Assembly (NCBI GenBank): GCA_963702895.1
Contig: OY969767.1
Location: forward strand, 640,001 to 704,000
DNA length: 64,000 nt
Direction of reading: 5' to 3'
DNA from: an uncultured Elusimicrobia bacterium
GTDB taxonomy: Bacteria; Elusimicrobiota; Elusimicrobia; 2-01-FULL-59-12
How positions within the stretch are numbered: the stretch's first letter is position 1; each line of letters opens with the position of its first letter. This document shows, piece by piece, positions 4,363-63,696 of the stretch. Both the position numbers and the translations under genes were made by a program. The notes under the pieces are model-generated. The model made no database searches and had not been told where the DNA came from. It saw only the letters and a list, made by a program, of their open reading frames with translations.

Positions 4363-4445
4363 TACCCCGATTCCTTCAATCACAGCTATAGGCCGGGGTA
4401 ATCCCGGCTATATCGCGCATAGCGCTTGATAGGAGGATCGGGATA
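4363..4445. repeat. Small palindromic insertion flanked by TA dinucleotides
   Basis: TA-CCCCGATTCCT...AGGATCGGGA-TA with a self-complementary interior. It splits the CATCTA|AGGGATAGGAGG motif seen intact elsewhere. Confidence 0.55.
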
Positions 4446-4470
4446 GATGGGAAACTGTTGGAAATATTCA
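4443..4470 (-). promoter_or_regulatory. TGAATA-N14-CCATCTAT motif (variant ECF-like promoter) upstream of ORF6N
   Basis: Same spacing as six other copies in the window. Confidence 0.55.
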
Positions 4471-4579
4471 TTCCTCAGACGGAGACGGCGGAATCGACGG
4501 ACGGCGAATCGGCGGGTCGGCGACGAGGGCGAGGCGGTGACCCGCCACTACGGCATGGCGGGCAGGCGCGGCGAGGAAT

Positions 4580-4717
4580 TTAGTTTGAGTTAAAGTTGAA
4601 CAGTTCGCGGACGATGGCGACGCTGATTTTGGCGGCCTTTGAGGTGTGGAGTATGCTTTGCTCGCTGACAAACTGGCTCCGCTGCTTCCGTCGATTGAGT
4701 AAGGCGTGCGGGCTCAT
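4580..4717 (-). pseudogene. 45-codon in-frame deletion derivative of the short ORF6N-like gene at 8456-8755
   Basis: MSPHALLNRRKQRSQFV...AAKISVAIVRELFNFNSN shares both ends with 8456-8755; the middle is missing. Confidence 0.7.
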
Positions 4718-4722
4718 CGAGA

Positions 4723-5067
4723 TCAGGCTGCCTTACGATGGGGTTTGAACGATTTCCTCGAAGAGACAATCTTTGCGCCTTCTGGGATGATGGCCAGGCG
4801 CGCCTTCAATAGTTTCGCGAGCTTTTCGTAAAGACCGACAAGGTGGCTGGAGTCTTCTTTCTCCAGCTTGGAGAGAAAGGACTGAGTCACATGCATGCGT
4901 GCGGCGAGCTCCACTTGGGAAATGCCCCGCATTCGCCGGAGGAGTGCGACTTGGACGGCCAGCGGCCTGTCGGCCAATTCCGCAAAGAAAGCGTCAGCAA
5001 ACTCGCGGTCTTCCTCAACGTGCTTCCATGTGTCCCTCTCAAAGGGCGATGATGTCTTTTTGATCAT
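4723..5067 (-). CDS. XRE-family HTH antitoxin (HigA-like)
   Basis: LRRMRGISQVELAARMHVTQSFLSKLE HTH. Overlaps the stop of the upstream toxin. Confidence 0.8.
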   Translation of the reverse strand: MIKKTSSPFERDTWKHVEEDREFADAFFAELADRPLAVQVALLRRMRGISQVELAARMHVTQSFLSKLEKEDSSHLVGLYEKLAKLLKARLAIIPEGAKIVSSRKSFKPHRKAA

Positions 5068-5456
5068 GGTTTTTGAACCTTCCCCGACAAGATATCCGCC
5101 ATGCGCCTAAACGCCAAGTCCAGATCCCTCCGAGGGGTCTTCATCGTCTTCTTCTCGATGGCGTGCAGAAGCCACAACTCCCGCCCCTTTAAACAGAAGA
5201 AAATGCGATAGGCAACACCCTGATACTCCCGTTTGAGTTCCCATAAGGGTTCATGGCCTTTCATCGGACGCACGCTGACATTGAGCCTGGCCGGCCAATA
5301 TTCCTGCAGCGTCAGGATATCCAAATCAAGCTTGGCGACCGCTTTCCTGCGTTGGCCATCATTTTTCAGCTCATCGATGAAGTCTTTGACAAACCCGTCT
5401 GTCCAGTTGGGAAAATACCCAACGTCCATTCTGTCCGCCTCTCCAGTATATTCCAT
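5064..5456 (-). CDS. RelE/HigB (Gp49-like) toxin; start may be ATG at 5429
   Basis: LWELKREYQGVAYRIFF...LLHAIEKKTMKTPRRDLDLA. Toxin-first order with an HTH partner. Confidence 0.8.
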   Translation of the reverse strand: MEYTGEADRMDVGYFPNWTDGFVKDFIDELKNDGQRRKAVAKLDLDILTLQEYWPARLNVSVRPMKGHEPLWELKREYQGVAYRIFFCLKGRELWLLHAIEKKTMKTPRRDLDLAFRRMADILSGKVQKP

Positions 5457-5511
5457 CTAAGGAATATCATCAACAGTCGATTCTTGGGGCCATCGCACTG
5501 CCCTCTATCCC

Positions 5512-5539
5512 TTAGATGCAGATAGTCAGAGAATATTCA
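5512..5539 (-). promoter_or_regulatory. TGAATA-N14-GCATCTAA putative ECF-type promoter
   Basis: Exact motif upstream of the HigBA-like pair. Confidence 0.65.
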
Positions 5540-5664
5540 CTTCTCAGACGGAGACGGTGAGCGGCAGACACGGGGACCCGCCACTACGGCGCGGCGGGCA
5601 GGCGCGGGGACGGGGCGAAACGGCAGACGCGGGACTCGAGACGCGGGACGCAGGACCCGGGACA

Positions 5665-5880
5665 GGCCTTCATTTGCCGAAGTCTCCCGCGGAAGAAAAG
5701 GAATTGGAAGCGATCGCGGTCCGCGGGACCCCCAAGGATGTGTACGCTTGGATCTACGGCGCGGACAGTTTCATGACCCAAGCCGTGCCGTTTGCCACAT
5801 GGGAACAACCCGGACAGACGCCCCAGGAAGGGCTCAAAACCATCCTGGCCGGCATCCGCCGGGGTGACGGCCTGAGTTAA
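5665..5880 (+). pseudogene. Duplicated fragment of the ParB C-terminal extension
   Basis: LPKSPAEEKELEAIAVRGTPKDVYAWIYGADSFMTQAVPFATWEQ closely matches the end of 2290-3516. No credible start; preceded by GACGCGG-type heptamers. Confidence 0.7.
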
Positions 5881-6014
5881 CTCGGAATCTTTTTCTGAAA
5901 GCGGGCGCAAGTAATTTCTGCCAGAAACAAAGCTCCCTCTTTGCCTTCTTTCTTTGAAGGCCTTTTAAAGTGTGGTAAGCGTCCTCGGTGTTCGCCCCGA
6001 CGTTTGTCGTTAAG

Positions 6015-6123
6015 CTGAACTCACACTTTTCTTCGTCCACATCGTCTGGACACTGTAATAGTTCGAGGTCGAGTCCCTTACGCTCAGTTTAAACGCAACC
6101 GCCCGTTAAGATTTCGACAAGGC
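6015..6123 (-). ncRNA. Putative bridge/seek RNA of IS1111 copy 1 (target and donor loops)
   Basis: Guides GAAATCT (6109-6115 rc), AACTGAG (6083-6089 rc), TATTAC (6055-6060 rc) and AGAAAAG (6026-6032 rc) sit in internal loops and match target and donor. RNA ends not determined. Confidence 0.75.
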
Positions 6124-7149
6124 GACTCGACCAAATCGATACACTTTCTCTTGGTACTTCCGCTTGTTCTTTAAGCACACCCACATAATCTCTGCCATCT
6201 TTCGCGCCACCGCCACAATCGCGACTGAGGCGGTCTTCCGTGTCTTCAAACGCTGATAGAACGATCGAAAATAGGGAGACACCTGAACAGCCGTCCACGA
6301 TGCCTCAATAAACGCATAGCGCAGGTATCGATTGCAGGACGGGATCAATCCCCCGTGGTACGTTTTACCGCCTGAGCTATACGTGCTACACACCAACCCA
6401 CAGTAAGACGCAAAGCGCGAAGCCGACGGAAATCGCTCGATCTGGTCAATTTCCAGCGACATCAGGGCGCTCAAGATCTTGCCTACCCCAGGAAAAGAAT
6501 CGACAAGCTCTCGTAAGGGGTGTTCGCTTAAGACACGATCAATCCACTCTTCGGTTGCTCGGACCTGAAGCCGAACCTCATCCAACAAGGCCATATGCGA
6601 CTTGAGCAGGTGTTGATGCATCTCGGGAAGAATCAACTCCTTCAGCCACGCCCTCCCATGAGCCCCAAACAGATCGCTGCGCTTGGGCACGTCCACATGC
6701 AGCCGGTCCAGTAAATCATGAATCCGATTCTTGATCAGCGTTTGGCTTTTGACCAACCACAATCGATGTCGCAATAACGACTTCTGCTCTCGTCGGTCAC
6801 GCGCGGGAACGTGAATCATCGGCGTCATCCCTAATCGCAACAACACCGCCTGTGCCGTCGCATCAATCTTGTCCGTCTTGATGTACGAATCCGCGATCAA
6901 CCGAGTTTTGTACGGATTGGCCAACACCGGATTCATCCCGAGATCTTCCAGAATGTCATAGGCAATGCCCCAGCTCCGTCCAGATTCCAATACACTTTGC
7001 ACCGGTTCTCCTGGAGGAATCGCCTCTTTAACTTGTGCAAGACCTTCTCGCCGTGTGGGGACTTGACCTTCCCATACAATCTCGCCAGACTCCCTCATAG
7101 CCACAACCTGACAATACTTCTTGTGATGATCAATGCCGATGGATATCAT
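6106..7149 (-). CDS. IS110-family DEDD recombinase/transposase
   Basis: SIGIDHHK, LESG, KTDKIDA, PGVG, YCGL...YSSGG. Confidence 0.95.
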   Translation of the reverse strand: MISIGIDHHKKYCQVVAMRESGEIVWEGQVPTRREGLAQVKEAIPPGEPVQSVLESGRSWGIAYDILEDLGMNPVLANPYKTRLIADSYIKTDKIDATAQAVLLRLGMTPMIHVPARDRREQKSLLRHRLWLVKSQTLIKNRIHDLLDRLHVDVPKRSDLFGAHGRAWLKELILPEMHQHLLKSHMALLDEVRLQVRATEEWIDRVLSEHPLRELVDSFPGVGKILSALMSLEIDQIERFPSASRFASYCGLVCSTYSSGGKTYHGGLIPSCNRYLRYAFIEASWTAVQVSPYFRSFYQRLKTRKTASVAIVAVARKMAEIMWVCLKNKRKYQEKVYRFGRVALSKS

Positions 7150-7568
7150 GATTTTGGGCCTCCTGGGGTTATTAAGGTGTCTTTACCGACAGCCTTGTTT
7201 ATAACTCTCTTGAGGCCCGCTTTCATATTACGCTCGGTTCTATGGAACACCCTCGCCCGCGGAACGCCGGAGAGGTCGCCAAGACTGTCGGCGACTCGCC
7301 GGATGTCTGGCGAGGCGGGGGTGAGGGCAAGGCTCCGTCGAAAGATGAGGCTGTGCCCTCACCCTTTACCCTCCCACTTACGACCGTGGAACCAGCGCCC
7401 CGACAGGTCGCCAGGGGCGACCGTAGGGGCTGTCCCTCCACCCGCAGGGTGGACGGGACGCGCTATAGGAAATTGCGGAAGCGCGGGTCTCCCACCTTGC
7501 GGCGGGAGAGGGGACAAAAAAGTGCGGCAGGTTCAGACGGCAGGACCTGGTCAATGGAAGATTTCGGG

Positions 7569-7901
7569 CTAGCGGGTAAGGCGTTGGAAGAGAATTTCCT
7601 CGAGGTCCCGTCGGCCATCGAAGATCCCATGGACATAGACCTTCTTTCCCTGGACGCGCAGGAGGATGCGGTAGGGATCGATCACGATCTCACGATAGAC
7701 ATCAAGGCCGATGGCTTTGAGTTCAGGGACCAGCCGGCTGCGATAGGGAACGGAGGTAAGCGTCCCTACGCGCTTCTCGATTTTGCGCCACAGCCTCCCG
7801 GCATTGAGTGGATTGCGCTCCGAGACAAAGGCGACGATATGCTCAAGGTCCTGCCTGGCGGCTTCTGACCAGAGAACGTCGTAGGCCGCGGGCTCATTCA
7901 T
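7569..7901 (-). CDS. RelE/ParE family toxin
   Basis: VLWSEAARQDLEHIV...YREIVIDPYRILLRV...IFDGRRDL. Overlaps the antitoxin stop. Confidence 0.8.
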   Translation of the reverse strand: MNEPAAYDVLWSEAARQDLEHIVAFVSERNPLNAGRLWRKIEKRVGTLTSVPYRSRLVPELKAIGLDVYREIVIDPYRILLRVQGKKVYVHGIFDGRRDLEEILFQRLTR

Positions 7902-8172
7902 GCGACGATAATTTCTTTTCGATGAGCTGTGAAAGTTCTTTGTGGCGGATGACGCGTCCCGAGCGGACATCGGCCTCGCTTTGCGCCGTGAGTTTGAGCA
8001 GGAGGAGGGCTTTGCGGGTGAGTTCGTAGCTCTCCACGTCCTGAACGACCGCCTTCGCCTGTCCGTTCTGTGTGATGATCATGGGCCGGCGGGTGCGATT
8101 GACGGTGGAAAGAATATCCGCCGGCCGAAGCTTTAAGTCGGTCACCGACTTGATGTCACGCTGGAGATCCAT
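7894..8172 (-). CDS. Phd/YefM family antitoxin
   Basis: DIKSVTDLK...RPMIITQNGQAKAVVQDVESYE. Confidence 0.85.
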   Translation of the reverse strand: MDLQRDIKSVTDLKLRPADILSTVNRTRRPMIITQNGQAKAVVQDVESYELTRKALLLLKLTAQSEADVRSGRVIRHKELSQLIEKKLSSHE

Positions 8173-8353
8173 AAGAGCGCTCCTGGGTTGAGAAGGATGA
8201 GTTGGTGCTAAATAGGGTGCCATAAATAGCACCATTATGCAAGCCCCATTTCCACGGAGGATCCCCACCGGCGGGCTGCCGCCGACCGGATGCGCTCTTT
8301 GATTTCGCCCAGCAATTGACCGTACGGAATTGCCATCTATATCCTCCTATCCA

Positions 8354-8381
8354 TTAGATGCGAAAAGGCGGGAAATATTCA
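8354..8381 (-). promoter_or_regulatory. TGAATA-N14-GCATCTAA putative ECF-type promoter
   Basis: Exact motif followed by GGATAGGAGG, upstream of the Phd/RelE pair. Confidence 0.65.
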
Positions 8382-8455
8382 TTCCTCAGACGGAGACGGC
8401 GGAATAGGCGGACGGCGAATCGGCGGGTCGGCGTGTCAGCGACGGGCCGAGGAAT

Positions 8456-8755
8456 TTAGTTTGAGTTAAAGTTGAACAGTTCGCGGACGATGGCGACGCT
8501 GATTTTGGCGGCATTTGAGTTGCGGAGTACGCAGGATACCATCAGGATTCCACTTTCGGTGAAGTAGTACGGGTGGTGCTCTTCCAGCATGAATTCAGGG
8601 GAGGGGAACCGCGCGATATGGCGCTTGACCGTACCTCTCAGTCGCCCCAGCGAAACTCCGTAGAGTTCTGCCACATCTTTGTCGAGCGCAACCCGTTGCC
8701 CGCGGACAAAGTGGCTCCGATGCTTCCGTCGATCGAGTAAGGCGTGCGGGCTCAT
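8456..8755 (-). CDS. Short ORF6N-domain protein
   Basis: VRGQRVALDKDVAELYGV...VKRHIARFP...FTESGILMVSCVLRN. Confidence 0.75.
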   Translation of the reverse strand: MSPHALLDRRKHRSHFVRGQRVALDKDVAELYGVSLGRLRGTVKRHIARFPSPEFMLEEHHPYYFTESGILMVSCVLRNSNAAKISVAIVRELFNFNSN

Positions 8756-8757
8756 GG

Positions 8758-9012
8758 TCAGGCGGCGTGGTGGTGAAGAATTTCGGAGATGAAGGTCTGA
8801 TAGGGAATACCGAAACTCTTCGCTTTTGCTTTGAGGTTGTTGAGATCGCCTTTATTAATCCGGATATTGAGCACGGCGTCTTTTTTCCGCTTTGAAATAT
8901 GCTCGGCAATGGCCCTGGCCATTTCTTCGAACGTCCCCCGGCTGACAGGAATGAATTCTGAAGCGGCCCTCTCAATCTCTCTTTCTTCCTTGGTAAGCTT
9001 CATCCGTTTCAT
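8758..9012 (-). CDS. BrnA/CopG-like (RHH) antitoxin
   Basis: KDAVLNIRINKGDLNNLKAKAKSFGIPYQTFISEILH. ATGA overlap with the toxin. Confidence 0.8.
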   Translation of the reverse strand: MKRMKLTKEEREIERAASEFIPVSRGTFEEMARAIAEHISKRKKDAVLNIRINKGDLNNLKAKAKSFGIPYQTFISEILHHHAA

Positions 9013-9272
9013 AGGAGGAGTCCCTTTCTGCGGTAGATGGCTGTAAACTTGCGGCTTCTGTAGGCTGTCTTCAAAAACCATTCGGCTTCGGTCTCTACAT
9101 ACGGCACGGCCCACAGATAATGCTCATACGCGAACAGCAAAATCCTCTGATGGGGCCGGCTTGGATGTTGGAGCAGATCGACCATAGGAGAGAGGGTCAG
9201 CTCCTCAAAGGACACTCCTCTTTCCCGCTTCAGCCAGTCGCTTTTGTCCGCGCTCCACCGCAGCGGCTTCAT
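9009..9272 (-). CDS. BrnT-like toxin
   Basis: WSADKSDWLKRERGVSFEE...VPYVE...FLKTAYRSRK. Confidence 0.8.
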   Translation of the reverse strand: MKPLRWSADKSDWLKRERGVSFEELTLSPMVDLLQHPSRPHQRILLFAYEHYLWAVPYVETEAEWFLKTAYRSRKFTAIYRRKGLLL

Positions 9273-9356
9273 CGACGGGCCTGATCAGTATACTGTAGGA
9301 CAAGTGTATATACAAGTGGATAGAGCTTGCGATTCATCGCCTTTGCCTCCTATCCC

Positions 9357-9384
9357 TTAGATGCAAAAACCCAATCTTTATTCA
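9357..9384 (-). promoter_or_regulatory. TGAATA-N14-GCATCTAA putative ECF-type promoter
   Basis: Exact motif upstream of the BrnT/BrnA pair. Confidence 0.65.
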
Positions 9385-9664
9385 CACCTTAGACGGAATA
9401 TGAGAAAGAACCGGACATCCCTGGGACAGACCTCGGGCCTGTCCCTGGGTCGTAGGATTTCTCTCAACAGTGGTGAGAGTTTTGGTTTTCCGGCACAGCT
9501 TAGATACGCCGAATGGTGTCAATCGCAGCAGCGAGACGGACGGTGGAGACGGCGGGGGGGCGGAGACGACGAACGGCGGAGACGGCCGGCGGCGGATCTA
9601 CGCTACCGTACGGCGGATCTTCGGGACCATACGGCGGAGACAGCGAGGGGCGGTGACGGGGAGA

Positions 9665-9855
9665 TGGGCGTATCGGAGTATGGGGGTATCGGTGTATCGG
9701 AGTCACAGCCTGAAGGCGTAACGGTGTACCGGAGTATCGGTGTATCGGAGTCACGGCCCTTACTGCGATCCTGCAGTTACTCCGATACTCCGTTACCCCG
9801 TTACCCCGTTACTCCGTTACCCCGTTACTCCGTTACCCCGTTACTCCGTTACTTC
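9665..9855. repeat. Inverted arrays of 8-mer tandem repeats (GTATCGGR facing CCGTTACY)
   Basis: Directly visible octamer runs in opposite orientation. Confidence 0.85.
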
Positions 9856-9979
9856 TTCCAGTCGGGGCGGAGACAGCGGACGGCGGATCACAGGAGCTAT
9901 GCGGCGGAGCTTTGGAACCGTGAGGTGGATCAACGCTAGCGGATGGCGGATCCGTCCTTTGTTAGATCCATGTTTGACG

Positions 9980-10150
9980 TAAAGGAGAATTACGCGATCG
10001 AGGGGTGGATGGGGCCGCGCGATGGTTTGGTGAGCCAGCACCGCATGCCGGAGTTTCATAAAGGCCCTCATGATCGCGATGTCCAGCTGGATGGCCCGCT
10101 CGCTGTTCAGGACGCTCGATCGCATGGCGATGCCCTCTTGCGCGAACACT
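9980..10150 (-). pseudogene. ORF6N C-terminal remnant
   Basis: FAQEGIAMRSSVLNSERAIQLDIAIMRAFMKLRHAVLAHQTIAR matches 3830-4345 but lacks the N-terminus. Confidence 0.75.
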
Positions 10151-10188
10151 CACACCCGACATCCCACCGACATAGTATGCTATAGCCT

Positions 10189-10701
10189 ATGCGAGTTCGA
10201 AGCACGCGCCTGTCTCCTCTGCCTTTCATGCTCCTGGTCAGCGCTCTCCTGTGCGGATGCGCGCATTCTGGGCCGCCCTCACCTGACCCGGCTTATGATA
10301 CGGCGCGGTATATGTCTTTGCAGATTGAGCAAACGAAGAAAGAAAAGACAGTCGTGGTCTGTCTGCAGTCCGATGCGGCCACCAATCGGCGTCTGGAGAC
10401 GTATATGGTTCAGTATCTCAAGAAGGATGGTTTTCAAGCCGTGGGGACCCAAGATGTTTTTACCGTTCGGCCGTCCTATGCCCCGCGCGGGCTCTTAAGT
10501 GAGCTGCGTTCGGCAAAAGTTGCTGGAATTATCGAAGTCAAGTTTTGGGGGAACATCACGCGCGAAGGGGTCCCGGAGCACTTTACACTTGAGCATCGCC
10601 GTTTGAAGGTCAAAAAGAGAGATGTGAACCAACGGTCGTGCGCCACCCTCGCGGAGGCTCTCATGCACCTCATGATCGCGATGCCGGTTGCGAAACTTTA
10701 G
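10189..10701 (+). CDS. Hypothetical lipoprotein
   Basis: Hydrophobic stretch plus lipobox-like LLCGC. Confidence 0.6.
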   Translation: MRVRSTRLSPLPFMLLVSALLCGCAHSGPPSPDPAYDTARYMSLQIEQTKKEKTVVVCLQSDAATNRRLETYMVQYLKKDGFQAVGTQDVFTVRPSYAPRGLLSELRSAKVAGIIEVKFWGNITREGVPEHFTLEHRRLKVKKRDVNQRSCATLAEALMHLMIAMPVAKL

Positions 10702-10704
10702 ATT

Positions 10705-13346: not shown

Positions 13347-13349
13347 ATC

Positions 13350-47341: not shown

Positions 47342-47676
47342 GACGCTTGTCTCCTTAAGTGGCATTCCCAGAAAGACTTCGCCAAGAGGATGTCTTTGCT
47401 CTGCGTGCTCTTGTCGCCGCCGAGGAGGAGCAAGAGAACAGTTTTTCCTTCTTGGCCAAAATAGATCCTATATCCCGGTCCGATATGGATTCGCAATTCA
47501 TAAACACCCGCGCCGACGCTTGAACAATCACCTAGAAGTCCTCGCTCGATACGCGTAAGACGCTTGTCTATCGCTACTCTTGCGGCTGTGTCTTTTAAGC
47601 GATTGAACCAGACGCGATACGGATAGCTGCCATCCGGTGCCTGAAAGTAGTCGATGAACCGCGGGGCAACCTCCAC
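47338..47676 (-). CDS. Addiction-module killer, RelE/HigB-like (HI1419-like)
   Basis: GDCSSVGAGVYELRIHIGPGYRIYF...LLLGGDKSTQSKDI. Confidence 0.88.
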   Translation of the reverse strand: MEVAPRFIDYFQAPDGSYPYRVWFNRLKDTAARVAIDKRLTRIERGLLGDCSSVGAGVYELRIHIGPGYRIYFGQEGKTVLLLLLGGDKSTQSKDILLAKSFWECHLRRQAS

Positions 47677-47733: not shown

Positions 47734-47816
47734 TTAGATGCGAAAGTGGACGATTTATTCATGGATCATGAAGATCGCCGTCGAAGAATGAATAAAAATC
47801 CAACTTTTGCATCTAA
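47734..47816. promoter_or_regulatory. Divergent pair of TGAATA-N14-GCATCTAA motifs (47734-61 minus; 47789-816 plus)
   Basis: Two exact copies back to back, facing the TA pair and yraN. Confidence 0.7.
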
Positions 47817-47821
47817 GGGAT

Positions 47822-48184
47822 ATGGACACCCTAGCGCTTGGCTTATGGGGGGAACGGGAAGCCGCCCGCTATTTGAAAGCGCGTGGCCTTGCGGTGCTGG
47901 AGCATCACTATCGCCAAAAGTGGGGGGAGATTGATCTCGTCTGCAAGGATCGTGACACCTGGGTCTTTGTCGAAGTCAAAACGAGGTCCAAACTCTATGA
48001 GCCTGGGGCCTTAGGCGCCATTGGCCAGGCCAAACGCCAGAAGCTTGCCCGCACGGCCATGAGCTATATGAAGTCTCAGCGAATCGAAGGACAGGCGATG
48101 CGTTTTGATGTTGTTGTGATTGAGGACGGTGAAATGGAATGGATTCAAAATGCTTTTGAACTCCCATCGCGCTATACCTGCTGA
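47822..48184 (+). CDS. yraN: YraN family nuclease
   Basis: G..GE..A..YL..G, GEIDLV, VFVEVKTR, RFDVV. Confidence 0.92.
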   Translation: MDTLALGLWGEREAARYLKARGLAVLEHHYRQKWGEIDLVCKDRDTWVFVEVKTRSKLYEPGALGAIGQAKRQKLARTAMSYMKSQRIEGQAMRFDVVVIEDGEMEWIQNAFELPSRYTC

Positions 48185-48201: not shown

Positions 48202-49734
48202 GTGATCGCTAAAGTTGACACCTTGTGCTTGTCTGGCGTGGAGGCGGCTCCTGTGCAGGTGGAGGTGAGCCTCGCGAAGGGGTTCCCGACGTTTTCCATC
48301 GTCGGGCTGCCGGACGCGTCCGTCCGCGAGGCGAAGGACAGGGTGGTGGCCGCGATCCGGAATTCCGGTTTTAGTTTTCCCTCTCGGCGCGTGACGGTGA
48401 ACCTTGCTCCGGCGGATGTCCGAAAGGAAGGCGCGAGTTTTGATCTGGCGATTGCCGTGGGGATCCTCACCGCCTCGGAAGCCATTGTCCTGAAGCGTTG
48501 GCCGCGGTGCTACTGGCTGGGGGAGCTCGCGCTCGACGGCTCCATTCGCGCTGTTCGCGGGGTGCTTCCGATGGGGAGAAGCCTTTCCCGGCATCCCGGA
48601 GCGGCCTTGGCGCTTCCGCAGGGCAACCTGACGGAGGTGAGCTGCTTGCCGGGCCTCAAGCTCTTTCCCTTCCAGCGCTTAACGGAGGTCGTGAACTGGC
48701 TGCAGGCCGAAGGGGATCCTCAAGCCCTTCGCCATGAGCCCGCCTGGACGCCCGCGGAACAGACCGCTCTCGTCGATTTGGCGGATGTCAAAGGCCAACG
48801 GATGGCCAAGCGGGCCCTCGAAATTGCCGCTGCGGGACGGCACCACATGCTCATGCTGGGAGCTCCCGGAACGGGGAAGTCCATGCTGGCGCAGGCCTTG
48901 CCCGGGATTCTTCCTTCCTGGACGCTCCAGGAGGCGCTGGACGCGACGCAGGTCTATTCCGCGGCAGGACAGATCGTGGGCACAGGCCTCATCAGCTCCC
49001 GGCCTTTTCGAAGCCCGCACCACACCGTTTCGACCGTCGCCCTCCTGGGGGGTGGCGATATTCCTGGTCCGGGCGAAATATCACTCGCCCATCGCGGGGT
49101 TCTGTTTATGGACGAGCTTCCAGAGTTTCGTCGTGATGCCCTGGAGGCGCTTCGGCAACCCCTGGAACAAGGGGTCATCCAGATCCAGCGGGCCCGCGGT
49201 CGCGCCAAATTTCCAGCTGATTTCCTGATGATTGGAGCGATGAACCCCTGTCCCTGCGGTTACCTCGGACACCCCAAGCGGGAATGCGAGTGCAACCCCT
49301 ACCGCATCCAGCGCTATATGGGGAAAGTGTCCGGCCCGGTTCTCGACCGAATGGACCTTCATGTGGAGCTTCCCGCTCTCAAAGTGGAAGAGCTCTTTGA
49401 ATCCACCGTCCACGCGGAATCTTCGGTCCATGTTCGAGAGCGTGTGCAGCGGGCGCGCCTCATTCAGGAAGAGCGCTACCAGCATTTCCGAGGCCGACCG
49501 CGTGACAACGCGCATCTTCAGCCCAAGGAGCTGCCGCGCTATTGCGCCCTTTCCTCCGACGGAGAATCGATCCTCAAGGCGGCTGTCGAACACCTGGGGC
49601 TTTCCGCGCGGGCCTTTGACCGGATCAAAAAAGTGTCCAGGACCATCGCTGACCTCGAAGGGGGACAAACGATCGAAGCTCGGCATATCGCGGAGGCGAT
49701 TCAGTACCGATGCCTGGACCGCCATCGCAGCTAA
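48202..49734 (+). CDS. comM: ComM/YifB Mg-chelatase-like AAA+ ATPase
   Basis: VGLPD..VRE, NLAPAD, GELALDG, GAPGTGKS, FRSPHH, AMNPCPCG. Confidence 0.95.
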   Translation: MIAKVDTLCLSGVEAAPVQVEVSLAKGFPTFSIVGLPDASVREAKDRVVAAIRNSGFSFPSRRVTVNLAPADVRKEGASFDLAIAVGILTASEAIVLKRWPRCYWLGELALDGSIRAVRGVLPMGRSLSRHPGAALALPQGNLTEVSCLPGLKLFPFQRLTEVVNWLQAEGDPQALRHEPAWTPAEQTALVDLADVKGQRMAKRALEIAAAGRHHMLMLGAPGTGKSMLAQALPGILPSWTLQEALDATQVYSAAGQIVGTGLISSRPFRSPHHTVSTVALLGGGDIPGPGEISLAHRGVLFMDELPEFRRDALEALRQPLEQGVIQIQRARGRAKFPADFLMIGAMNPCPCGYLGHPKRECECNPYRIQRYMGKVSGPVLDRMDLHVELPALKVEELFESTVHAESSVHVRERVQRARLIQEERYQHFRGRPRDNAHLQPKELPRYCALSSDGESILKAAVEHLGLSARAFDRIKKVSRTIADLEGGQTIEARHIAEAIQYRCLDRHRS

Positions 49735-50070: not shown

Positions 50071-50955
50071 ATGAATAGTGAGCTTCAAAGCGAAATTCGC
50101 TGTGTTCTTGATAGTGATCCGGATTATCCGTCGAGTCTGCGCGACATTCCGGACAAGCCCGATGTTCTTTATGTCCAAGGACGCTGGCCGTTGCCGGAAG
50201 AAGTGATGAAGATCGGGATCGTAGGCGCGCGGCGCGCGACCCCCTATGGCATGGACGCCGCCGCGAGGATCTCTTCGGATTTGTCGCAGCAAGGGGCCCT
50301 GATCATCAGCGGCCTGGCGATGGGAATAGATGCCTGCGCTCATCGGGCGTGCCTCAAAGAAGGAGGGTGGACCGTGGCCGTCTTGGGACATGGGTTCGGG
50401 CACGAGTACCCTCGAGACAATGCGAGGCTTTCGAAGGATCTTGCGGAGAAAGGGACTTTGATTACGGAATTTGATTTCGACGTTCCGCCGCGGCCCCAAC
50501 ATTTCCCGCGCCGTAACCGAATTATCTCGGGCCTTTCCAGAGGGGTCGTCGTGGTTGAGGCCGGGGAGCATTCCGGTGCCCTGATCACCGCGCGCTACGC
50601 GGCGGAACAGGGGAGGGATGTCTTTGTGGTTCCCGGGAGCATTTTCAACTGGCAAAGCAAGGGGTGTCACCGTCTTATTAAGGAAGGGGCAAGGCTTATC
50701 GAATCGGCACAAGATCTACTCGAAGAGTACGGCGCAAAAGCGCCTGGGGTGAGAGCCTCCTCAAAGGAATTGCCCCCGCTGAGCCCCGCCGAGCAAGAGC
50801 TTTTGGGGCATCTCAATTCCGTGCCGCTTTCCGTCGATGAATTGGCCGAGCTGACAGGCCACAGAGTTGATCGGTTGGCGGAAGTCCTGCTATCTTTGGA
50901 GCTCAAAGGATTAATTATGAACATGTCTGGACATCGTTATGCTACGCACAACTAA
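50071..50955 (+). CDS. dprA: DNA-processing protein DprA
   Basis: IVGAR, SGLAMGID, FPRRNRIISG, SGALITA. Confidence 0.95.
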   Translation: MNSELQSEIRCVLDSDPDYPSSLRDIPDKPDVLYVQGRWPLPEEVMKIGIVGARRATPYGMDAAARISSDLSQQGALIISGLAMGIDACAHRACLKEGGWTVAVLGHGFGHEYPRDNARLSKDLAEKGTLITEFDFDVPPRPQHFPRRNRIISGLSRGVVVVEAGEHSGALITARYAAEQGRDVFVVPGSIFNWQSKGCHRLIKEGARLIESAQDLLEEYGAKAPGVRASSKELPPLSPAEQELLGHLNSVPLSVDELAELTGHRVDRLAEVLLSLELKGLIMNMSGHRYATHN

Positions 50956-53364: not shown

Positions 53365-54249
53365 TTGGACCAACTGATTCATCGATTCCTCATGTATTTA
53401 CGGGCGGAACGTAACGCCTCTCCTCACACCCTTCGCGCCTATCAGCATGACCTGGCGGCCTACAGCGCGTTCGTGAAGAGCCAATATCCGCGCCTGTCCA
53501 TGGACCACAAGCATCGGCTCGTGGTGCGTGATTATTTGGCCCACCTGCACGATAAAAATCTCAAGCGCGCGACCGTTCACAGGGCCATTGCCGTTCTCCG
53601 GGCTTTCTACAAGTTTCTGCTGCAGGAAGGGGTGAGCTCCCAAACTCCCTTCGCGGGTCTTCCGATGCCAAAGCGCGAACAGCGGCTGCCACGCTTTTTG
53701 GCCGAGGCCGAAATGGCCCGGCTTCTTGAGATGCCGGCCGTTGGCCGGGGGCTTCTTGCGATGCGTGACGCCGCGCTGCTTGAGTTATTGTATTCTTCGG
53801 GTTTGAGGATCCAGGAACTCGCTGGGCTCAACATCGAAGATCTTGACCTCTGGGGCGGGATGGTCCGCGTCTTTGGAAAGGGGGGGAGGGAAAGGATGGT
53901 CCCGGTTGGAGAAACCGCGCAGAAGCGCCTGCATGCCTATATCAGCGCGCGCGCCCCGAAGCGGGAACGTGCCGCGCCGCTTTTCACCAACGCGCGCGGG
54001 GGGAGGCTCTCGGACCGGGGCGCGCGACTGGTCGTCACCCGCTGGGTTGAAAAGGCCTCGATCCAGCAGCGCGTGAGCCCCCATTCTTTTCGCCACTCCT
54101 TTGCCACACACCTCTTGAACAGGGGATGTGACCTGAAGGCGGTTCAGGACATGCTGGGACACAGGAATCTGGCCACCACCCAGATTTATACCCATGTGTC
54201 CGCGGAACACCTCAAAAAAGTGTACGAAAGGGCCCATCCCAGAGCTTGA
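53365..54249 (+). CDS. xerC: Tyrosine recombinase XerC-like
   Basis: YSSGLR, GKG, PHSFRHSFATHLL, LGH...TTQIYTH, in dprA-topA-xerC synteny. Confidence 0.85.
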   Translation: MDQLIHRFLMYLRAERNASPHTLRAYQHDLAAYSAFVKSQYPRLSMDHKHRLVVRDYLAHLHDKNLKRATVHRAIAVLRAFYKFLLQEGVSSQTPFAGLPMPKREQRLPRFLAEAEMARLLEMPAVGRGLLAMRDAALLELLYSSGLRIQELAGLNIEDLDLWGGMVRVFGKGGRERMVPVGETAQKRLHAYISARAPKRERAAPLFTNARGGRLSDRGARLVVTRWVEKASIQQRVSPHSFRHSFATHLLNRGCDLKAVQDMLGHRNLATTQIYTHVSAEHLKKVYERAHPRA

Positions 54250-55181: not shown

Positions 55182-55192
55182 GCCATGATCCG

Positions 55193-57816: not shown

Positions 57817-57836
57817 CTTCTCAGGAGGACAACCTT

Positions 57837-58223: not shown

Positions 58224-58288
58224 CACGTCATTCCGGCGAAAGACGGAATCCAGAACTGGACCCCGACTTTCGTCGGGGTGACCAAATA

Positions 58289-58325
58289 AAAAGGGACAGT
58301 CCTAAGGACTGTCCCCTTCTGTTTC
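58289..58325. terminator. Probable bidirectional terminator
   Basis: AAAAA-GGGACAGTCC-TAA-GGACTGTCCC-CTTCTGTTT between convergent genes. Confidence 0.65.
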
Positions 58326-58364
58326 TTCGTCTAAAAAATAGGCCTTGGTGAACGGCTGCGCTGA

Positions 58365-60587
58365 CTACCGCCGAGGCTCCTGATCACCATACTGCGCGCC
58401 AGCCCCTCGACGTGCCGCCGCCGCGGCCCCACGAGCGCTCGTGCTTCCCCCTGCGGCGGTGTTCGCCATCGCGTTCTGTCGAGCGAGGGCTTCGTTGGCT
58501 TCATCGGTCGGCACGACGGCGCCATTTGCGTTTTTCTTGAACATCTTGACGCGGCCTTCCCCTGGCGCCACCCTTCTTAGCATATAGCCGTCATAATCGA
58601 CGGTTTCCATGTTGACATGGTATCGAGCGGCTTCACCAGGTGCCGTAATATCTTTAGAGACCCAGGTGACTTTCATGCCCGAGACGCCATCGTTTCCAGA
58701 TTCTTGGTAAAAGGTTTTGCCCATGAGACCCTCAGGGTTGGATGGCAGGCGACGGGACGGGTCAATCGCGGCTTGGAAAGAGTCTCGTGCGCCTGGCAGT
58801 TGCGTGACGGTTATGGGAATGGACTGGCTCACGGGACCAGTGACAGACAGGTCAATGCCGAGCCCCATGAGGGCCGCCCCCGCGACGATTGGAATGGCAT
58901 TCTTGCCAAGAGCTGTATACCACGGCCCGGTGTTGGGCATCTTCGTGACATCGCCCTTGGTGGCATCTTCTGGATTGTCTTTTTTCCTGTTCAGCCATCC
59001 AGCGATTAAGCTGACAAGAACAATCGCAGCTAAAGCTATCCATCCTAAAACGGGTATTCCTCCGAAAACCATGGCCATACTGCCGATCATGCTGAGGGCC
59101 GACATGGCGAGAGAGGCGAACCCGCTCCACGAGAAGCCATTCTGTCCCATGGCAAACCCCGAAGCAAATGTGCCTATGGCACTCGCAACAATCCCGATGA
59201 CACCGAGCGTTTTGCCGAGTGTTGTCAGGGAGCTCCAACCTTTTGCCGCAGCATCTGCCACATGGGTTAAAGAATTCGGAAGCATGTTCAAGGCAGCGGT
59301 ACTGGCTGCACCTATCGCGCCAGCAATGGCGCCTATCTTGCCCATTGTGCTGCCAGTTACCCCACTGGTATCGTTATCGCTGTCGTCCTGATCGTTGATA
59401 TCGTCTACGTCCGTATCGTCTGTCGTATCAGTGGTCGTGTCATCCGTCGTGTCATCCGCAGTGTTGTCATCCGTCGTGTCATCTCCGTCGTCCGGCACCG
59501 GTGGTGTGTTTCCAATCGGTGTGTTGGGGTCGGTGAGATCAGGCGGTTTATTTTCAATCACTGTGTTGGGGTCGTCTATTGACGTGTTGGGGTCAGCAAT
59601 ATTTTGGATGGGATTGACGGAGTCGTCATCCGAAACGGTGGGCGAAGGGGGGCGGGCGCCGCCATCGGCCAGCGTGGCCGTGGCAAATTGCCGGCCCGTG
59701 GCTGTGCCTGAAAAGGAGTTGTTGGTGGCGGTACCAGCACTTGTTGTGTTGGTGCTCCCCGAACCCTGGCCCCCCGTTGTAGACCCCGTACCGTTGGTCA
59801 CGTTGCTCCCCGAACTCTGGCCCCCCGTTGTAGACCCCGTACCATGGACCAGATCTAGGTTTTCAACAGGCAGGTTGAGGAAGCCAGGCCCATCGATTTT
59901 TCCTACCACTTTCGTGCCGTTGTAGATGGTGTAGGTTTTAAAGTCGATGCTATAGCCCTGCGGGAGAGACAGCACGTTCCCCTGGGTATCACGGATCACG
60001 ATGCCGCTTCCGTCGCGCGTGATGGCCAAGTCGATGGGTTGATCCTCCCCTACCAGCTTCAATTGGGCGTTGGGCTTCAGAATGCTCGAGGGGTCCTTCG
60101 GGATTCCGGCAGATTCGGCCGGCAGGCGGAAGAAGCCGGGGCCCTGGATCTGCCCGGCGACTTTGTTGTTGAAGTAAATCGTGTTCGTTTGTAAGTCGAC
60201 GGTGTAGCCGCTCGGCAGGGAAAGGGGCTGACCCTGGGCATCGCGGACGACGATGCCGCTTCCTTCGCGCGTGATGGCAACATCCTTCGTACTCCCCAGA
60301 AGCGTGAGCTTGGCGTTAGTTCCCAATAAGGGGCTGTCGGGATTCAATACTTGTTCCGACGGCAGGTCCAGAAAGTTGGGGGCCTTCAGTTGCCCGGCCG
60401 GTTTTCCCAAGTAATAAAGGGTGCCGGTTTCGAAATTGATGCCGGTCCCTTCAGGCAGAGAGACGAGCTGGCCAGAGTCGTCCCGAAGGATAATGCCGCT
60501 GCCGCTCCGGGTGACGCGGACGTTGAGCTTGTCATCGAAGAGAGAAAGGTCACCGTTTGTCACGATGGTGGGGGCTGTTGTGCTCAT
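58365..60587 (-). CDS. Uncharacterised 740-aa protein: three 80-aa repeats, acidic linker, hydrophobic helices, conserved C-terminal domain
   Basis: Long ORF whose C-terminal part is paralogous to 60584-62806. Confidence 0.85.
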   Translation of the reverse strand: MSTTAPTIVTNGDLSLFDDKLNVRVTRSGSGIILRDDSGQLVSLPEGTGINFETGTLYYLGKPAGQLKAPNFLDLPSEQVLNPDSPLLGTNAKLTLLGSTKDVAITREGSGIVVRDAQGQPLSLPSGYTVDLQTNTIYFNNKVAGQIQGPGFFRLPAESAGIPKDPSSILKPNAQLKLVGEDQPIDLAITRDGSGIVIRDTQGNVLSLPQGYSIDFKTYTIYNGTKVVGKIDGPGFLNLPVENLDLVHGTGSTTGGQSSGSNVTNGTGSTTGGQGSGSTNTTSAGTATNNSFSGTATGRQFATATLADGGARPPSPTVSDDDSVNPIQNIADPNTSIDDPNTVIENKPPDLTDPNTPIGNTPPVPDDGDDTTDDNTADDTTDDTTTDTTDDTDVDDINDQDDSDNDTSGVTGSTMGKIGAIAGAIGAASTAALNMLPNSLTHVADAAAKGWSSLTTLGKTLGVIGIVASAIGTFASGFAMGQNGFSWSGFASLAMSALSMIGSMAMVFGGIPVLGWIALAAIVLVSLIAGWLNRKKDNPEDATKGDVTKMPNTGPWYTALGKNAIPIVAGAALMGLGIDLSVTGPVSQSIPITVTQLPGARDSFQAAIDPSRRLPSNPEGLMGKTFYQESGNDGVSGMKVTWVSKDITAPGEAARYHVNMETVDYDGYMLRRVAPGEGRVKMFKKNANGAVVPTDEANEALARQNAMANTAAGGSTSARGAAAAARRGAGAQYGDQEPRR

Positions 60588-62806
60588 TTGTTTTCAACCT
60601 CCGAGTTATCAGCCGCTCCCCCGTTATGGGCAGCGGCGACAGATCCATCAGGACTTGTGACATTGCTGGCGGCGGCCATGGAATACGCGCGCACTCGACC
60701 GATGGCATCGTTGCCCGCTCGTGTCGCGACCACAGCGCCATTGGCGTCGCGCTCGAAAATAGGGACATAGGAATCCGACGGATCGTTCGGGCCAACCATG
60801 GCGCCTTTATAATTAAGGCTGAGCATGTTCACGGAATAAGTCGCGGCTTTATCCTTCGTCGGCATGGAGTCCTGGGACACATAGACCACCTTGTCAGGTG
60901 TGACCCCGTTGTTTTCAGAGCTCTGAATAAAAACTTTCCCTAATACGCCAGTGCCGATCCCGGGCAGTTTGCCGCCGCCAACGGAGGTGTCGAGGGCGTT
61001 TCTCCAGCCGGTCAGCTCGCTCGCCTTGATGGCGATGGATTTGTCGGAGGGTCCCTCTAAGCCCAGGTTGAGCCCCAAGGCCATGAGCGCCGCGGCAGAG
61101 GTGATCATAAATACGTTTTTGCTTCCCAGGCTCTTGTACCAGGGCTTGGGCTCGGCGTACTTTTTCTCTTGGGCAACCACCTTCTGACCGTTGGCGGATG
61201 TGGTCTGGCTCGTTGGCGTCGTCTGCGTGGCTGGGACTGGCGGTACATCGCCGGGGCCGCCTTCTTCGTTGTCCTTCTTTTTTTTATGACCGAGCCAATA
61301 GCCAAGCGCCATGATGAGGCCGGCGACCATGGCCGAGTAGCCCACGCCCCATTTGAAAATAGCATCAAAACCCTGCATAAAGCTTGTAACAGACGGGACC
61401 AAGCTGACGATCCCTGTCCATGCGGACTGGCCCTCCTGGAGATTGCCCAGCGCCATTCCCAAAGCAAAGAGCGAAAAACCTCCGCCGATCATGCCCACGA
61501 GCGCCATGGGATTGGATTTCATGCGCTGGCCTAGCGAGGTTTCTGATCCGGCCGAAGCTCCGGCGCCCGCGCCTTTTTCGGTGATCTCCTCAGGGCCCCT
61601 AAGCCCCGCTGCCATTTCCCCGGCTGCCTGGTCATTCATGCTTGCACCGATGAGATTGCCCTCGCTGTCGTAAACCCTTGTTACGGTTTTGTCAGAATAT
61701 TGAACGTTGGGATTGACGTTGCCCTTTTCGTCAAAAAAGTTTCCTGAAGATGCAGGACCAGTCTCTTTCACGACGGTAACACCCGTCTCGGCAAATACTT
61801 TGCTTTCTCCCGGCTTCATCGAGGCTATGGTCTGCGCATAGCGCGCGCTGTTCGCCCTTGCTTCGTCCGCAGACCAAAGGGCCGTGCTCACCACTTTTCG
61901 TGCCGTGTCAGCATTGTACGTGCTGATCGATTTACCGTTGCCGAGGGGCACGGTGTATTCTGTTTTGCCGCCAACGGTTTGCGTTGTGACACGTGGGTCA
62001 TACAATGGATCCGCTTCGTTAAAGGACTTTCCTCCTATTAGGTGCTGATCAAAGGGGACGGTGTTTCCATCCGAATAGGTAGTAGCAGTGGGGTTGCGTG
62101 GTTTCACATAGGGTGCTGAAAGGTCAGCTGTTCCGATCTTGCTCGTTGTGCTGCTTAAAGGTGTTCCGTTCACAATGGCATTCTTGATATTGTGCGCACT
62201 GGCGCCAGCGATAGAGTGATCGGCATTCGCCGTGTCAAGATATCCTGCGACCTCTCCGTTGCTGCCCTTCAGTTCAAAATAACCTACGCCGTTCTGATCC
62301 TTTGCCATAGCACCAACTTTATAGGACACACCGTTTTTCCCAGCAAAAGTCACTGTCTGCCCTGTGACTATCTTTTGACCACCGTAATCAATCCCATCTG
62401 TAACGGGAGTAAAAGTAAGCTGTGTAGCGGGTACCGGGGCGGCGGCCTGTGAATGCGAAGCAACAAGCGGAGTGGGTGCCGGGGCGGCGGCCTGTGAATG
62501 CGAAGAAACAAGCGGAGCGGGTGGCGTAGCAGGAGGAGTGGGTGTCGGATAACCAGGAAATGGCGGTAATGATTGATGCAAATCCCCAGTAGACCGGAAT
62601 GTCCCAAGGGTAGTGTGACCATCTACGATAGTTGTAACTCCATTATTCGGTGAATAGGAAAGTTGATAGTTCCCGCCGAGACTACTAAAGTGGTCGCCAT
62701 TGGGCACAAGTATCTTGTTATTGATCAGATCTCTATAGGCAGTAACGGCATTGCCATTAGGCATTGTTAATACAATTTTCTCATACGGTGATGTGATTGA
62801 GCTCAT
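60584..62806 (-). CDS. Uncharacterised 740-aa protein, paralogue of the downstream gene
   Basis: Long ORF, RBS GAGG, ATGA overlap with the next gene. Confidence 0.85.
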   Translation of the reverse strand: MSSITSPYEKIVLTMPNGNAVTAYRDLINNKILVPNGDHFSSLGGNYQLSYSPNNGVTTIVDGHTTLGTFRSTGDLHQSLPPFPGYPTPTPPATPPAPLVSSHSQAAAPAPTPLVASHSQAAAPVPATQLTFTPVTDGIDYGGQKIVTGQTVTFAGKNGVSYKVGAMAKDQNGVGYFELKGSNGEVAGYLDTANADHSIAGASAHNIKNAIVNGTPLSSTTSKIGTADLSAPYVKPRNPTATTYSDGNTVPFDQHLIGGKSFNEADPLYDPRVTTQTVGGKTEYTVPLGNGKSISTYNADTARKVVSTALWSADEARANSARYAQTIASMKPGESKVFAETGVTVVKETGPASSGNFFDEKGNVNPNVQYSDKTVTRVYDSEGNLIGASMNDQAAGEMAAGLRGPEEITEKGAGAGASAGSETSLGQRMKSNPMALVGMIGGGFSLFALGMALGNLQEGQSAWTGIVSLVPSVTSFMQGFDAIFKWGVGYSAMVAGLIMALGYWLGHKKKKDNEEGGPGDVPPVPATQTTPTSQTTSANGQKVVAQEKKYAEPKPWYKSLGSKNVFMITSAAALMALGLNLGLEGPSDKSIAIKASELTGWRNALDTSVGGGKLPGIGTGVLGKVFIQSSENNGVTPDKVVYVSQDSMPTKDKAATYSVNMLSLNYKGAMVGPNDPSDSYVPIFERDANGAVVATRAGNDAIGRVRAYSMAAASNVTSPDGSVAAAHNGGAADNSEVENK

Positions 62807-62859
62807 CCGAGTCGTCCTCTCATTCTTACCCCAATGCTCTTTTCTAGGTGGCTGGGAAT

Positions 62860-62913
62860 AGTTTGACGTTTTAGTGTTACAAGCGGGTTAATTGAATGTT
62901 ACATTTCGGTTAA
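62860..62913 (-). promoter_or_regulatory. Four hexamers at exact 11-bp period (OmpR/PhoB-type boxes) upstream of the 740-aa pair
   Basis: Minus strand TTAACC-N5-GTAACA-N5-TTAACC-N5-GTAACA-N9-CAAACT. Confidence 0.6.
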
Positions 62914-63196
62914 ATCCGCCTTCCCGGATGGCCTATGCCTCCGACGGAGAACCCCAAAATGGCATAGGTCCTTTGGCGAAGGTATATAGGCCCATAAAAT
63001 GGCGCGAAAAATCGAGAAACGAGAAGCGAGAAACCAGAGCTGAGAGCAAAAAAATGGGGGTAATTTTTGCCCGATTGGCCTGGGCCTTTCGACTACTAAA
63101 ACATGGGCCCTATGGAAAAATATATTAGACGAAAAGGGGAAGGTCCAATGGCGAGCAGCATGAATAACGTTCCCAAAGAGTTCATAGCAAAAATGA

Positions 63197-63550
63197 CAAA
63201 GCAGAGACACGAAAGCAAAAACTCAGAGCAGAAATCTCGTATTTCTGCTTTGTGGCTTTGCTTTCGTCGGTCTGCTTTGTCAGTTCTGTTTTGATCTTTG
63301 AGAAAGATCCAGCTTTCAGAGCAGAATCACCAAAGCAGAGACACGAACGCAAAAACACAACGCAGAAATCTCAGAGTTCTGCTTTTGCTTTCGTCGGTCT
63401 GCTTTGAGGGCTCTGCTTTGCTCTTTGAGAAAGATCCAGCTCTCAGAGCAGAATCACCAAAGCAGAGACACGAACGCAAAAACTCAGAGCAGAAATCTCA
63501 GAGTTCTGCTTTTGCTTTCGTCGGTCTGCTTTGAGGGCTCTGCTTTGTTC
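63197..63550. repeat. Three tandem 127-134-bp palindromic units
   Basis: Units start at 63197, 63331 and 63458; each reads CAAAGCAGA...TCTGCTTTG. Confidence 0.9.
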
Positions 63551-63668
63551 TTTTGCTTTCATGGCAATCCCCCCACCCACCCTCCCCTTGCACACGCAGG
63601 AAGCCAGTCACCCTTCCGCCGTCCGTCTCTTCCGCCGCCCGCCTCTTCCGGCGTCTCCGTCTGAAGAA

Positions 63669-63696
63669 TGAATATCTCCCGCGTTTCTGCATCTAA
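63669..63696 (+). promoter_or_regulatory. TGAATA-N14-GCATCTAA putative ECF-type promoter
   Basis: Exact motif preceded by CGTCTCCGTCTGAAGAA, as in the 4-9 kb copies. Confidence 0.65.

Follow-up and report, generated by a model that had tools for sequence, protein, structure and literature searches.

Promoters read by sigmaE, the RpoE/AlgU type (ECF02) of extracytoplasmic function (ECF) sigma factor, have a 16-nucleotide (nt) spacing and a TCTAA form of the -10 element. Passages in PMC6648896 give the sigmaE consensus as GGAACTT at -35 and GTC at -10. Promoters of this kind are already known, and so are competence regulons under alternative sigma factors: in the streptococcal ComDE–ComX and the staphylococcal and lactobacillus SigH regulons, an alternative sigma factor serves genes for DNA import and recombination below a kinase phosphorelay (passages in PMC7665891, PMC3486894, PMC3364868 and PMC12378983). 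Here, we analyse a stretch of 64,000 nt (the window) from an uncultured Elusimicrobia bacterium (contig OY969767.1, positions 640,001 to 704,000), in which a preliminary description had noted seven copies of a two-part motif and had proposed that they are promoters of an alternative sigma factor for competence or DNA stress. The repeated motif is real, and we argue that it is probably the promoter (-35 GAATAW, 16 nt, -10 TCTAA) of a kinase-switched ECF sigma factor, fused to a receiver domain, which drives a competence-like regulon.

This protein, hereafter REC-sigma, is comparable to RpoE/AlgU in its specificity loop (comparison FRGEASF versus FRGDSAF) and in the shape of its promoter. It differs in having an N-terminal receiver, a neighbouring histidine kinase and no RseA/MucA anti-sigma factor, in its -35 element (GAATAW), in an almost invariant Met in sigma4 where sigmaE has an Arg, and in its targets, which are competence and accessory genes. 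Unlike ComX and SigH, REC-sigma joins receiver and sigma factor in one polypeptide, is ECF02-like and belongs to an outer-membrane host; no peptide pheromone was identified for the system, which leaves comEA, ssb and the pilins uncovered. PhyR, of the ECF15 general stress response, also unites a receiver and an ECF-like domain in one chain and is paired with histidine kinases. However, its N-terminal domain is a degenerate sigma-like one and its receiver is C-terminal, whereas REC-sigma has the reverse order, intact DNA-contact residues, no NepR or EcfG partner in its operon and a matching promoter. Kinase-linked ECF control without a membrane anti-sigma factor is also described for EcfP/PknT (ECF43), ECF32 and ECF39 (passages in PMC8999054 and PMC7826278). 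EcfP has no DAED acids, and a Ser/Thr kinase modifies it at a Thr, whereas REC-sigma keeps these acids and its predicted acceptor is the receiver Asp; in ECF32 and ECF39 a separate regulator protein controls transcription of the sigma gene. The passages of the ECF literature consulted cover PhyR, two-component control of ECF transcription, Ser/Thr phosphorylation and N-terminal extensions (PMC8103513, PMC7826278, PMC9239204, PMC8999054), and the portions of the literature searched contained no paper on a receiver–ECF fusion or on competence control in Elusimicrobiota; an earlier mention of the architecture is possible. The receiver-fused sigma factor, its sensor operon and its crowd of accessory targets appear to be undescribed.

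The window corresponds to positions 640001–704000 of a single-contig genome of 2.72 Mb (G000; the other genomes compared carry labels of the same form, with C for contig). The seven copies were found at the positions and on the strands first reported, each oriented toward a gene:

4443–4470, minus strand: variant copy of the putative promoter with two mismatches; ORF6N gene start 97 nt downstream
5512–5539, minus strand: putative promoter copy, exact
8354–8381, minus strand: putative promoter copy, exact
9357–9384, minus strand: putative promoter copy, exact; sigma70-like promoter after it at about 9287–9315
47734–47761, minus strand: putative promoter copy, exact; back to back with the 47789 copy
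47789–47816, plus strand: putative promoter copy, exact; yraN ATG 5 nt downstream
63669–63696, plus strand: putative promoter copy, exact

Shuffled sequences contain a mean of 0.17 copies and at most two, compared with the seven real ones in the window. The fixed spacer of 14 claimed at the outset extends to the whole of G000, with 25 exact and ten one-mismatch copies at this spacing and none with zero or one mismatch at spacers of 12, 13, 15 or 16. A weight matrix retrieved 37 sites above 25 bits in G000 (the next best scores 14.5) and none in two shuffles. By contrast, GGATAGGAGG, which had been said to follow most copies, is exact after just three of the seven in the window. Nor are all of these copies independent: those at 4443, 8354 and 9357 look like parts of a duplicated island at around 890 kb. 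Genome-wide, de-duplication leaves 34 of the 37 sites, and most copies have their own spacer and wider flanks.

The conserved core is shorter than the pattern first described. Derived from the DNA upstream of recA in relatives, it reads GAATAW-N16-TCTAA, and in G000 GAATA-N17-TCTAA occurs 37 times, against one to three times with N15, N16, N18 or N19. The GCA and GGGAT flanks of the core are lineage-specific (GCA/GGGAT in G000, GCC/CAGTT in G006, GGG in G005); a sigmaB-like reading of GGGATA was dropped because this flank varies outside the genus. Relatives do not share the upstream CCGTC/CCGAC word: between positions -29 and -1 the information never exceeds 0.23 bits. The motif is asymmetric, unlike the palindromic or repeated operators of the LexA/SOS type.

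All 11 genomes of the host's Elusimicrobiota family contain the core in 8–37 copies, compared with 0–4 for reversed controls. The sole genome of the same order outside the family, G011, has four (control 1), and 29 other genomes have 0–11 (controls 0–9). When 401 genomes of the phylum were surveyed, none of the 393 outside the family had more than 12 copies, and their counts were close to those of the controls. Among the genomes compared, enrichment of the motif is confined to one family of uncultured Elusimicrobiota.

The position of start codons relative to the motif is that expected of a promoter. We used 145 sites from seven genomes, with three G007 sites left out, which gave 140 after de-duplication. 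At 41 of these 140 a reading frame of 55 codons or more begins with ATG or GTG 3–9 nt after TCTAA, with a peak at 5–7 nt, as against 7.2% at random positions and 67 of 1126 lone TCTAA words; a second cluster at 14–20 nt leaves room for a ribosome site. An automated test in G000 found a start within 120 nt of 27 of the 37 sites, compared with ten on the opposite strand. The clustering fits leaderless transcripts from an ECF promoter, and this spacing suggests that transcription would start about 6 nt after TCTAA. The sites point at genes and are found outside mobile repeats as well; neither random orientation nor confinement to such a repeat was observed. Most of the checks put forward in the preliminary description, which included a search for sites at comEA, comEC, recA, ssb, pilin and ECF sigma genes, came out in favour of an ECF-type promoter serving competence.

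Three of these genes indeed have a site in G000: comEC, recA and, at the head of its operon, an ECF sigma gene. Among the 37 exact-core sites of this genome, four belong to the competence set (recA, comEC, yraN–comM–dprA, and a four-helix-bundle gene followed by comF), one to the sigma operon and four to a secreted tail-collar-like protein, a Spy/CpxP-like protein and two small proteins. Accessory genes account for toxin–antitoxin (TA) pairs at 12 sites, DUF1016 genes at six, other four-helix-bundle genes at five, ORF6N genes at two and Y1 transposase remnants at two. The site at G000:2521114 has no evident gene behind it and was counted as chance.

The competence sites persist across genera with diverged spacers. 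A site precedes recA in eight of the nine family loci shown (one of them with a 17-nt spacer) and in none of 21 loci outside the family, as judged by eye; with at most one mismatch, it precedes comEC in 8/10 family genomes and 0/22 others. It is found upstream of comF in all six annotated family genomes and upstream of comM in ten of 11, the G010 contig being short there. In five genomes the site is upstream of yraN and in six it separates yraN from comM, G001 having both arrangements; it therefore tracks comM–dprA and not a fixed position. Single relatives have a site before radC, recQ, a PLD nuclease, a PD-(D/E)XK nuclease or restriction-modification genes (74 of 122 candidate open reading frames (ORFs) of relatives were scanned); with one query, no radC was found in G000. 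Such a shared upstream site on comEC, comF, dprA, comM and recA is what would mark a competence regulon. Two proteins of G000 have a site in several genera and may be components of the regulon: a Cys-containing protein of 59 amino acids (aa) at G000 350923 and a 111-aa Spy/CpxP-like protein at G000 188953.

Accessory genes come first at 28 of the 37 G000 sites (TA, DUF1016, four-helix bundle, ORF6N, Y1 transposase). Conversely, within about 400 nt behind a site we find 7/8 of the DUF1016 genes of G000, 5/6 BrnT-like, 3/3 HI1420-type and 1/1 Y1 genes, and six of ten four-helix-bundle genes (seven with a matrix-only site). ORF6N is directly behind a site in only two of nine matches, several of which are fragments. 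Some accessory genes sit between promoter and core gene: a four-helix-bundle gene before comF in G000 and, behind a variant site, an ORF6N gene before comEC in G005. In G001 a Y1 gene with its own site precedes yraN.

Which sigma factor would read these sites? The sigma genes of G000 comprise five of ECF type, two RpoS-like ones and a split rpoD (in two reading frames at G000:C1:1428354-1431565, which may be an assembly indel). Sigma factors were listed with TIGR02937 in G000, G004, G005, G006, G007 and G010, with partial lists for five more genomes, and an ECF tree was built from 71 rows, leaving out group-2 sigmas and rows missed by the profile. The receiver–ECF clade is the only ECF clade common to all six fully listed genomes, and it includes all 11. 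By direct search, REC-sigma is present in 11/11 family genomes and in G011, compared with 0/29 others, and within the set of 401 genomes only family members gave matches below E 1e-25. None of the other four ECF genes of G000 has the motif upstream. We first considered the ECF gene at G000:1127958 but discarded it, since neither G004 (98% complete, 24 sites) nor G005 (92%, 8 sites) has a member of its clade. Another, at G000 893441 and close to two sites, lies next to an anti-sigma-like gene of its own and belongs to a clade without members in G005 and G006.

The REC-sigma gene (G000:2625500-2626564, minus strand) lies outside the window, at the end of an operon that encodes, in order, a PorV-like barrel, an Ig-domain protein with a C-terminal sorting-type tail, (a collar-like protein), a TPR protein, a HAMP–HisKA–HATPase kinase and REC-sigma. 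The kinase gene is directly upstream of REC-sigma in 15/15 loci. The motif precedes the operon in all seven resident copies with a visible start (G000, G003, G005, G006, G007, G010 and G004, the last with a 17-nt spacer), five contigs ending too early to show it. This site on its own operon is stronger evidence for REC-sigma than co-occurrence, and an autoregulated promoter is predicted. Where the collar-like gene is separate (G000, G004 twice, G007) it has a site of its own; elsewhere it is inside the operon. No anti-sigma or second ECF gene was found in the resident operons and no RseA/MucA anti-sigma gene downstream of REC-sigma, where the neighbours vary (a transglycosylase, an mfd-like gene and others). 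The PorV-like gene of G000 encodes 315 aa, versus about 374 in relatives, with an unrelated tail, which may be an assembly indel.

Extra copies of the kinase/REC-sigma operon occur on mobile-looking DNA (G006:C4, G006:C14 and G008:C71), where their neighbours are MobC/relaxase-like or integrase-like genes; a variant site precedes one copy, another lacks a site and the third is cut. ParB-like and RadC-like genes accompany the G006:C4 copy, as does a sister sigma factor that lacks the receiver. A collection-wide scan with the full REC-sigma alignment was dominated by receiver domains and gave no orthologue among 79 loci. With the sigma part, a metagenome scan gave at least 80 loci; of the seven looked at, three belong to the family (one of these seems to be the element already found as an extra copy in G006), and none shows a further operon start. 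The best of at least 80 viral matches, the one looked at, is a plain ECF sigma factor without a receiver (34%).

REC-sigma contains sigma2 and sigma4 (PF04542, PF08281) and no sigma3. It scores 81 bits on TIGR02937 (cut-off 42.9) and 111 bits on the RpoE equivalog TIGR02939, below the cut-off of 236; the closest solved sigma factors are AlgU and sigmaE (PDB entries 6in7, 8z6g, 1or7 and 6jbq; E 3e-39 to 4e-34). Equivalents of sigmaE F64, W73, R76 and N80, which matter for promoter melting and the -10 pockets (passages in PMC6648896), are kept in 71, 70, 68 and 67 of 71 homologues, respectively. The GTVMSRL segment of sigma4 is nearly invariant in the same set, and the DAED acidic pair, stated to be required for core binding in passages of PMC8999054, is kept in 70 and 71 of them. 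The receiver keeps its residues as well: D10 in 63/63, D53 in 65/65, T/S83 in 67/67 and K105 in 68/68. In an AlphaFold model, receiver, sigma2 and sigma4 are all folded (mean pLDDT 84, pTM 0.62), with the placement of the domains unfixed. The family is narrow, with 66 clusters having strong sigma-part scores. In a search of 1.8 billion proteins six full-length representatives came out on top, with multi-receiver proteins at lower ranks; among large Atlas clusters, those of PhyR proteins come nearest (score 0.90), and the PhyR Pfam model gave no match to REC-sigma at E 1e-4.

These elements can be assembled into a mechanism. An envelope signal of unspecified kind would activate the histidine kinase, which would phosphorylate Asp53 of REC-sigma, since the catalytic residues are intact and the gene pairing is fixed. 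Phosphorylation may then free the sigma domain or tighten its binding to core polymerase, as suggested by an operon without an anti-sigma gene. Transcripts would begin at the predicted position after TCTAA, the site on the operon itself could provide positive feedback, and comEC, comF, comM, dprA and recA would be induced jointly, with yraN, radC or recQ in some genera, giving a competence-like state. Accessory genes that carry or capture the same promoter would hence be expressed when DNA enters the cell.

Several observations weigh against this account. As the genomes form one clade, the co-occurrence of sigma factor and motif is one evolutionary event, and the ECF tree is a quick tree without bootstrap. 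G011 has REC-sigma, yet only its four sites (control 1), none at comEC. An RpoS-like group-2 sigma is likewise found in all six listed genomes, and the ECF at G000:1127958-1128569 scores 146 bits on the RpoE model versus 111 for REC-sigma. The Gln-Glu pair of region 2.2 in AlgU/sigmaE is replaced family-wide by Ala/Ser and mostly His, and this replacement could weaken core binding. On the side of the targets, recA of G005 has no site, and three expectations of the preliminary description failed: there is no site at ssb or at six pilin-type gene starts, and no clear comEA was found (HHH_3 matches occur in three of 11 genomes, the one in G000 inside a pilin-type cluster).

The same promoter and the same REC-sigma might instead run a general envelope, host-contact or DNA-stress programme that does not make the cells transformable. 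The RpoE-like character of REC-sigma would suit such a programme, as would the predominance of accessory genes at the G000 sites (28/37), the conservation of Spy/CpxP-like periplasmic and secreted tail-collar-like proteins as targets, and the gaps at comEA, the pilins and ssb. Yet the conserved core consists of comEC, comF, comM, dprA and recA; ComM is termed transformation-specific in a passage of 10.1101/2024.10.21.619469, and Legionella regulates comEA, comEC, comM, radC and comF as one set, without pilins (passages in PMC12378983). DNA stress in particular, which the preliminary description had kept as an alternative, loses ground: a separate LexA exists (over the cut-off in 9/11 family genomes), lexA of G000 (1322558-1323169) has no upstream site, and no uvr or ruv gene is among the 37 sites of G000 or the 74 genes scanned in relatives. 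A reading of the motif as a LexA box was rejected on its asymmetry and on the missing site at lexA. We consider a stress programme unlikely.

It is also improbable, in our view, that another sigma factor, such as the RpoE-like ECF at G000:1127958, reads the promoter and that REC-sigma is a PhyR-like decoy or a mere target. The higher RpoE score of that protein, the proximity of REC-sigma to the PhyR clusters and the lost Gln-Glu pair all speak for it, but the clade of that ECF is missing from G004 and G005, which have sites. A decoy is further at odds with the nearly invariant DNA-contact residues and DAED acids of REC-sigma, the corresponding promoter- and polymerase-binding regions being degenerate in PhyR (passages in PMC8103513), with the reversed domain order and with resident operons that lack an anti-sigma or second ECF gene. 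Finally, we see very little chance that the motif marks where a mobile unit spreading small cassettes ends or inserts, and resembles a promoter by accident: island copies do share upstream CCGTC-rich repeat DNA, some of it duplicated, flanks are homogenised inside each lineage, accessory genes lie directly behind the sites before comF (G000), comEC (G005) and yraN (G001) and Y1 transposases are common as first genes, but spacers and wider flanks differ in most copies, the site is kept before recA, comEC and comM in housekeeping contexts across eight genera, and there is one site per gene, without paired ends, at which start codons cluster at transcript-start spacing.

Starting from the kinase-switched REC-sigma, we tentatively go further, with slightly less than even confidence. 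REC-sigma would be a response regulator whose output is a working sigma factor, equivalent to ComE and ComX in one chain, and would act as a self-amplifying competence switch; ORF6N, DUF1016, four-helix-bundle, TA, restriction-modification and Y1-transposase genes would repeatedly have been recruited to its promoter in order to act upon entry of single-stranded DNA, and mobile elements would carry copies of the switch.

The genes behind the window sites, with the other features around them, are as follows:

3830–4345, minus strand: ORF6N protein, 171 aa (PF10543, E 6e-30)
4723–5456, minus strand: Gp49/HigB-like toxin and helix-turn-helix antitoxin (PF05973, PF01381)
5445–5473, minus strand: sigma70-like promoter, nine of 12 consensus matches, palindromic spacer, between the motif and the TA pair
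7569–8268, minus strand: Phd antitoxin and ParE toxin (PF02604, PF05016)
8235–8336, minus strand: 33-codon stub, the first 20 codons matching the DUF1016 gene behind site 890002
8456–9272, minus strand: BrnT-like toxin, CopG-type antitoxin and short ORF6N (BrnT profile from relatives, E 3e-11)
47027–47676, minus strand: Gp49/HigB-like toxin and HI1420-type antitoxin, between rnhB and yraN
47822–48184, plus strand: yraN (UPF0102; PF02021)
48202–49734, plus strand: comM (PF01078, PF13541, PF13335)
50071–50955, plus strand: dprA
63774–64000, plus strand: start portion of a 375-aa DUF1016/YhcG gene that continues beyond the window end

The motif had been said to drive all four TA pairs of the window. 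Sites do point at all four, which stands, but 'drives' is an overstatement: in the pairs behind the 5512 and 9357 copies a separate sigma70-like promoter lies between the site and the genes, so that the motif would be a second, upstream input for them, and phd–parE comes after the DUF1016 stub behind the 8354 copy, the real Phd start probably being further downstream than annotated. The copy at 4443 seems to be disrupted: its CATCT lies about 80 nt from AAGGGATAGGAGG, which follows immediately in the paralogue at G000 891121, and the -10 element is probably interrupted by this insert. The TA pair at 47027–47676 sits between rnhB and yraN, which are adjacent in relatives, and the yraN transcript is predicted to be leaderless because its ATG lies 5 nt past the promoter copy. 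Between comM and dprA there are 336 nt of hairpin-rich DNA, in which no terminator-like sites were called.

Other features touch on the sites or their neighbours. Divergent promoter pairs about 45–55 nt apart occur in four genomes (window 47734–47816, G001:C23, G007:C1:320120 and G009:C175). Window 2266–10700, after a type I restriction gene, and G000 885500–891200 are two related islands. Each holds a ParB-like gene together with a stack of cassettes (TA, ORF6N and DUF1016), and 8-nt tandem arrays and hairpin repeats rich in CCGTC lie between the cassettes. The first of two 347-aa IS110-family transposases (window 6106–7149 and 31499–32542) lies inside the window island. At G000 2036410–2039539, three tandem units of 1551 nt each contain a putative promoter and a DUF1016 gene, two of them truncated at 269 aa. 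The site at G000 149258–151000 heads an ORF6N gene followed by a Flp-pilin-like 57-aa ORF and a small secretin gene, an order from which a Tad-like locus could be read from the promoter. A XerC/D-type recombinase gene (window 53365–54249) comes after topA, itself after dprA, and another lies behind recA; each could belong to a transcript that starts at a regulon promoter. On the minus strand, two 740-aa genes lie in tandem (window 58365–62806), neither with a Pfam match.

If the proposal is true, REC-sigma would constitute a direct kinase-to-sigma switch, in which the Asp-phosphorylated regulator is itself the promoter-specificity subunit, a mode unlisted in the portions of the ECF reviews and classification searched. 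It would also place a competence regulon of a diderm, uncultured lineage under an ECF sigma factor. The sigma factor, its kinase and some 140 natural promoters might serve as an inducible orthogonal switch, and one promoter would give a testable shared context to widespread families of unknown function, such as DUF1016, the four-helix bundle and the BrnT-like proteins.

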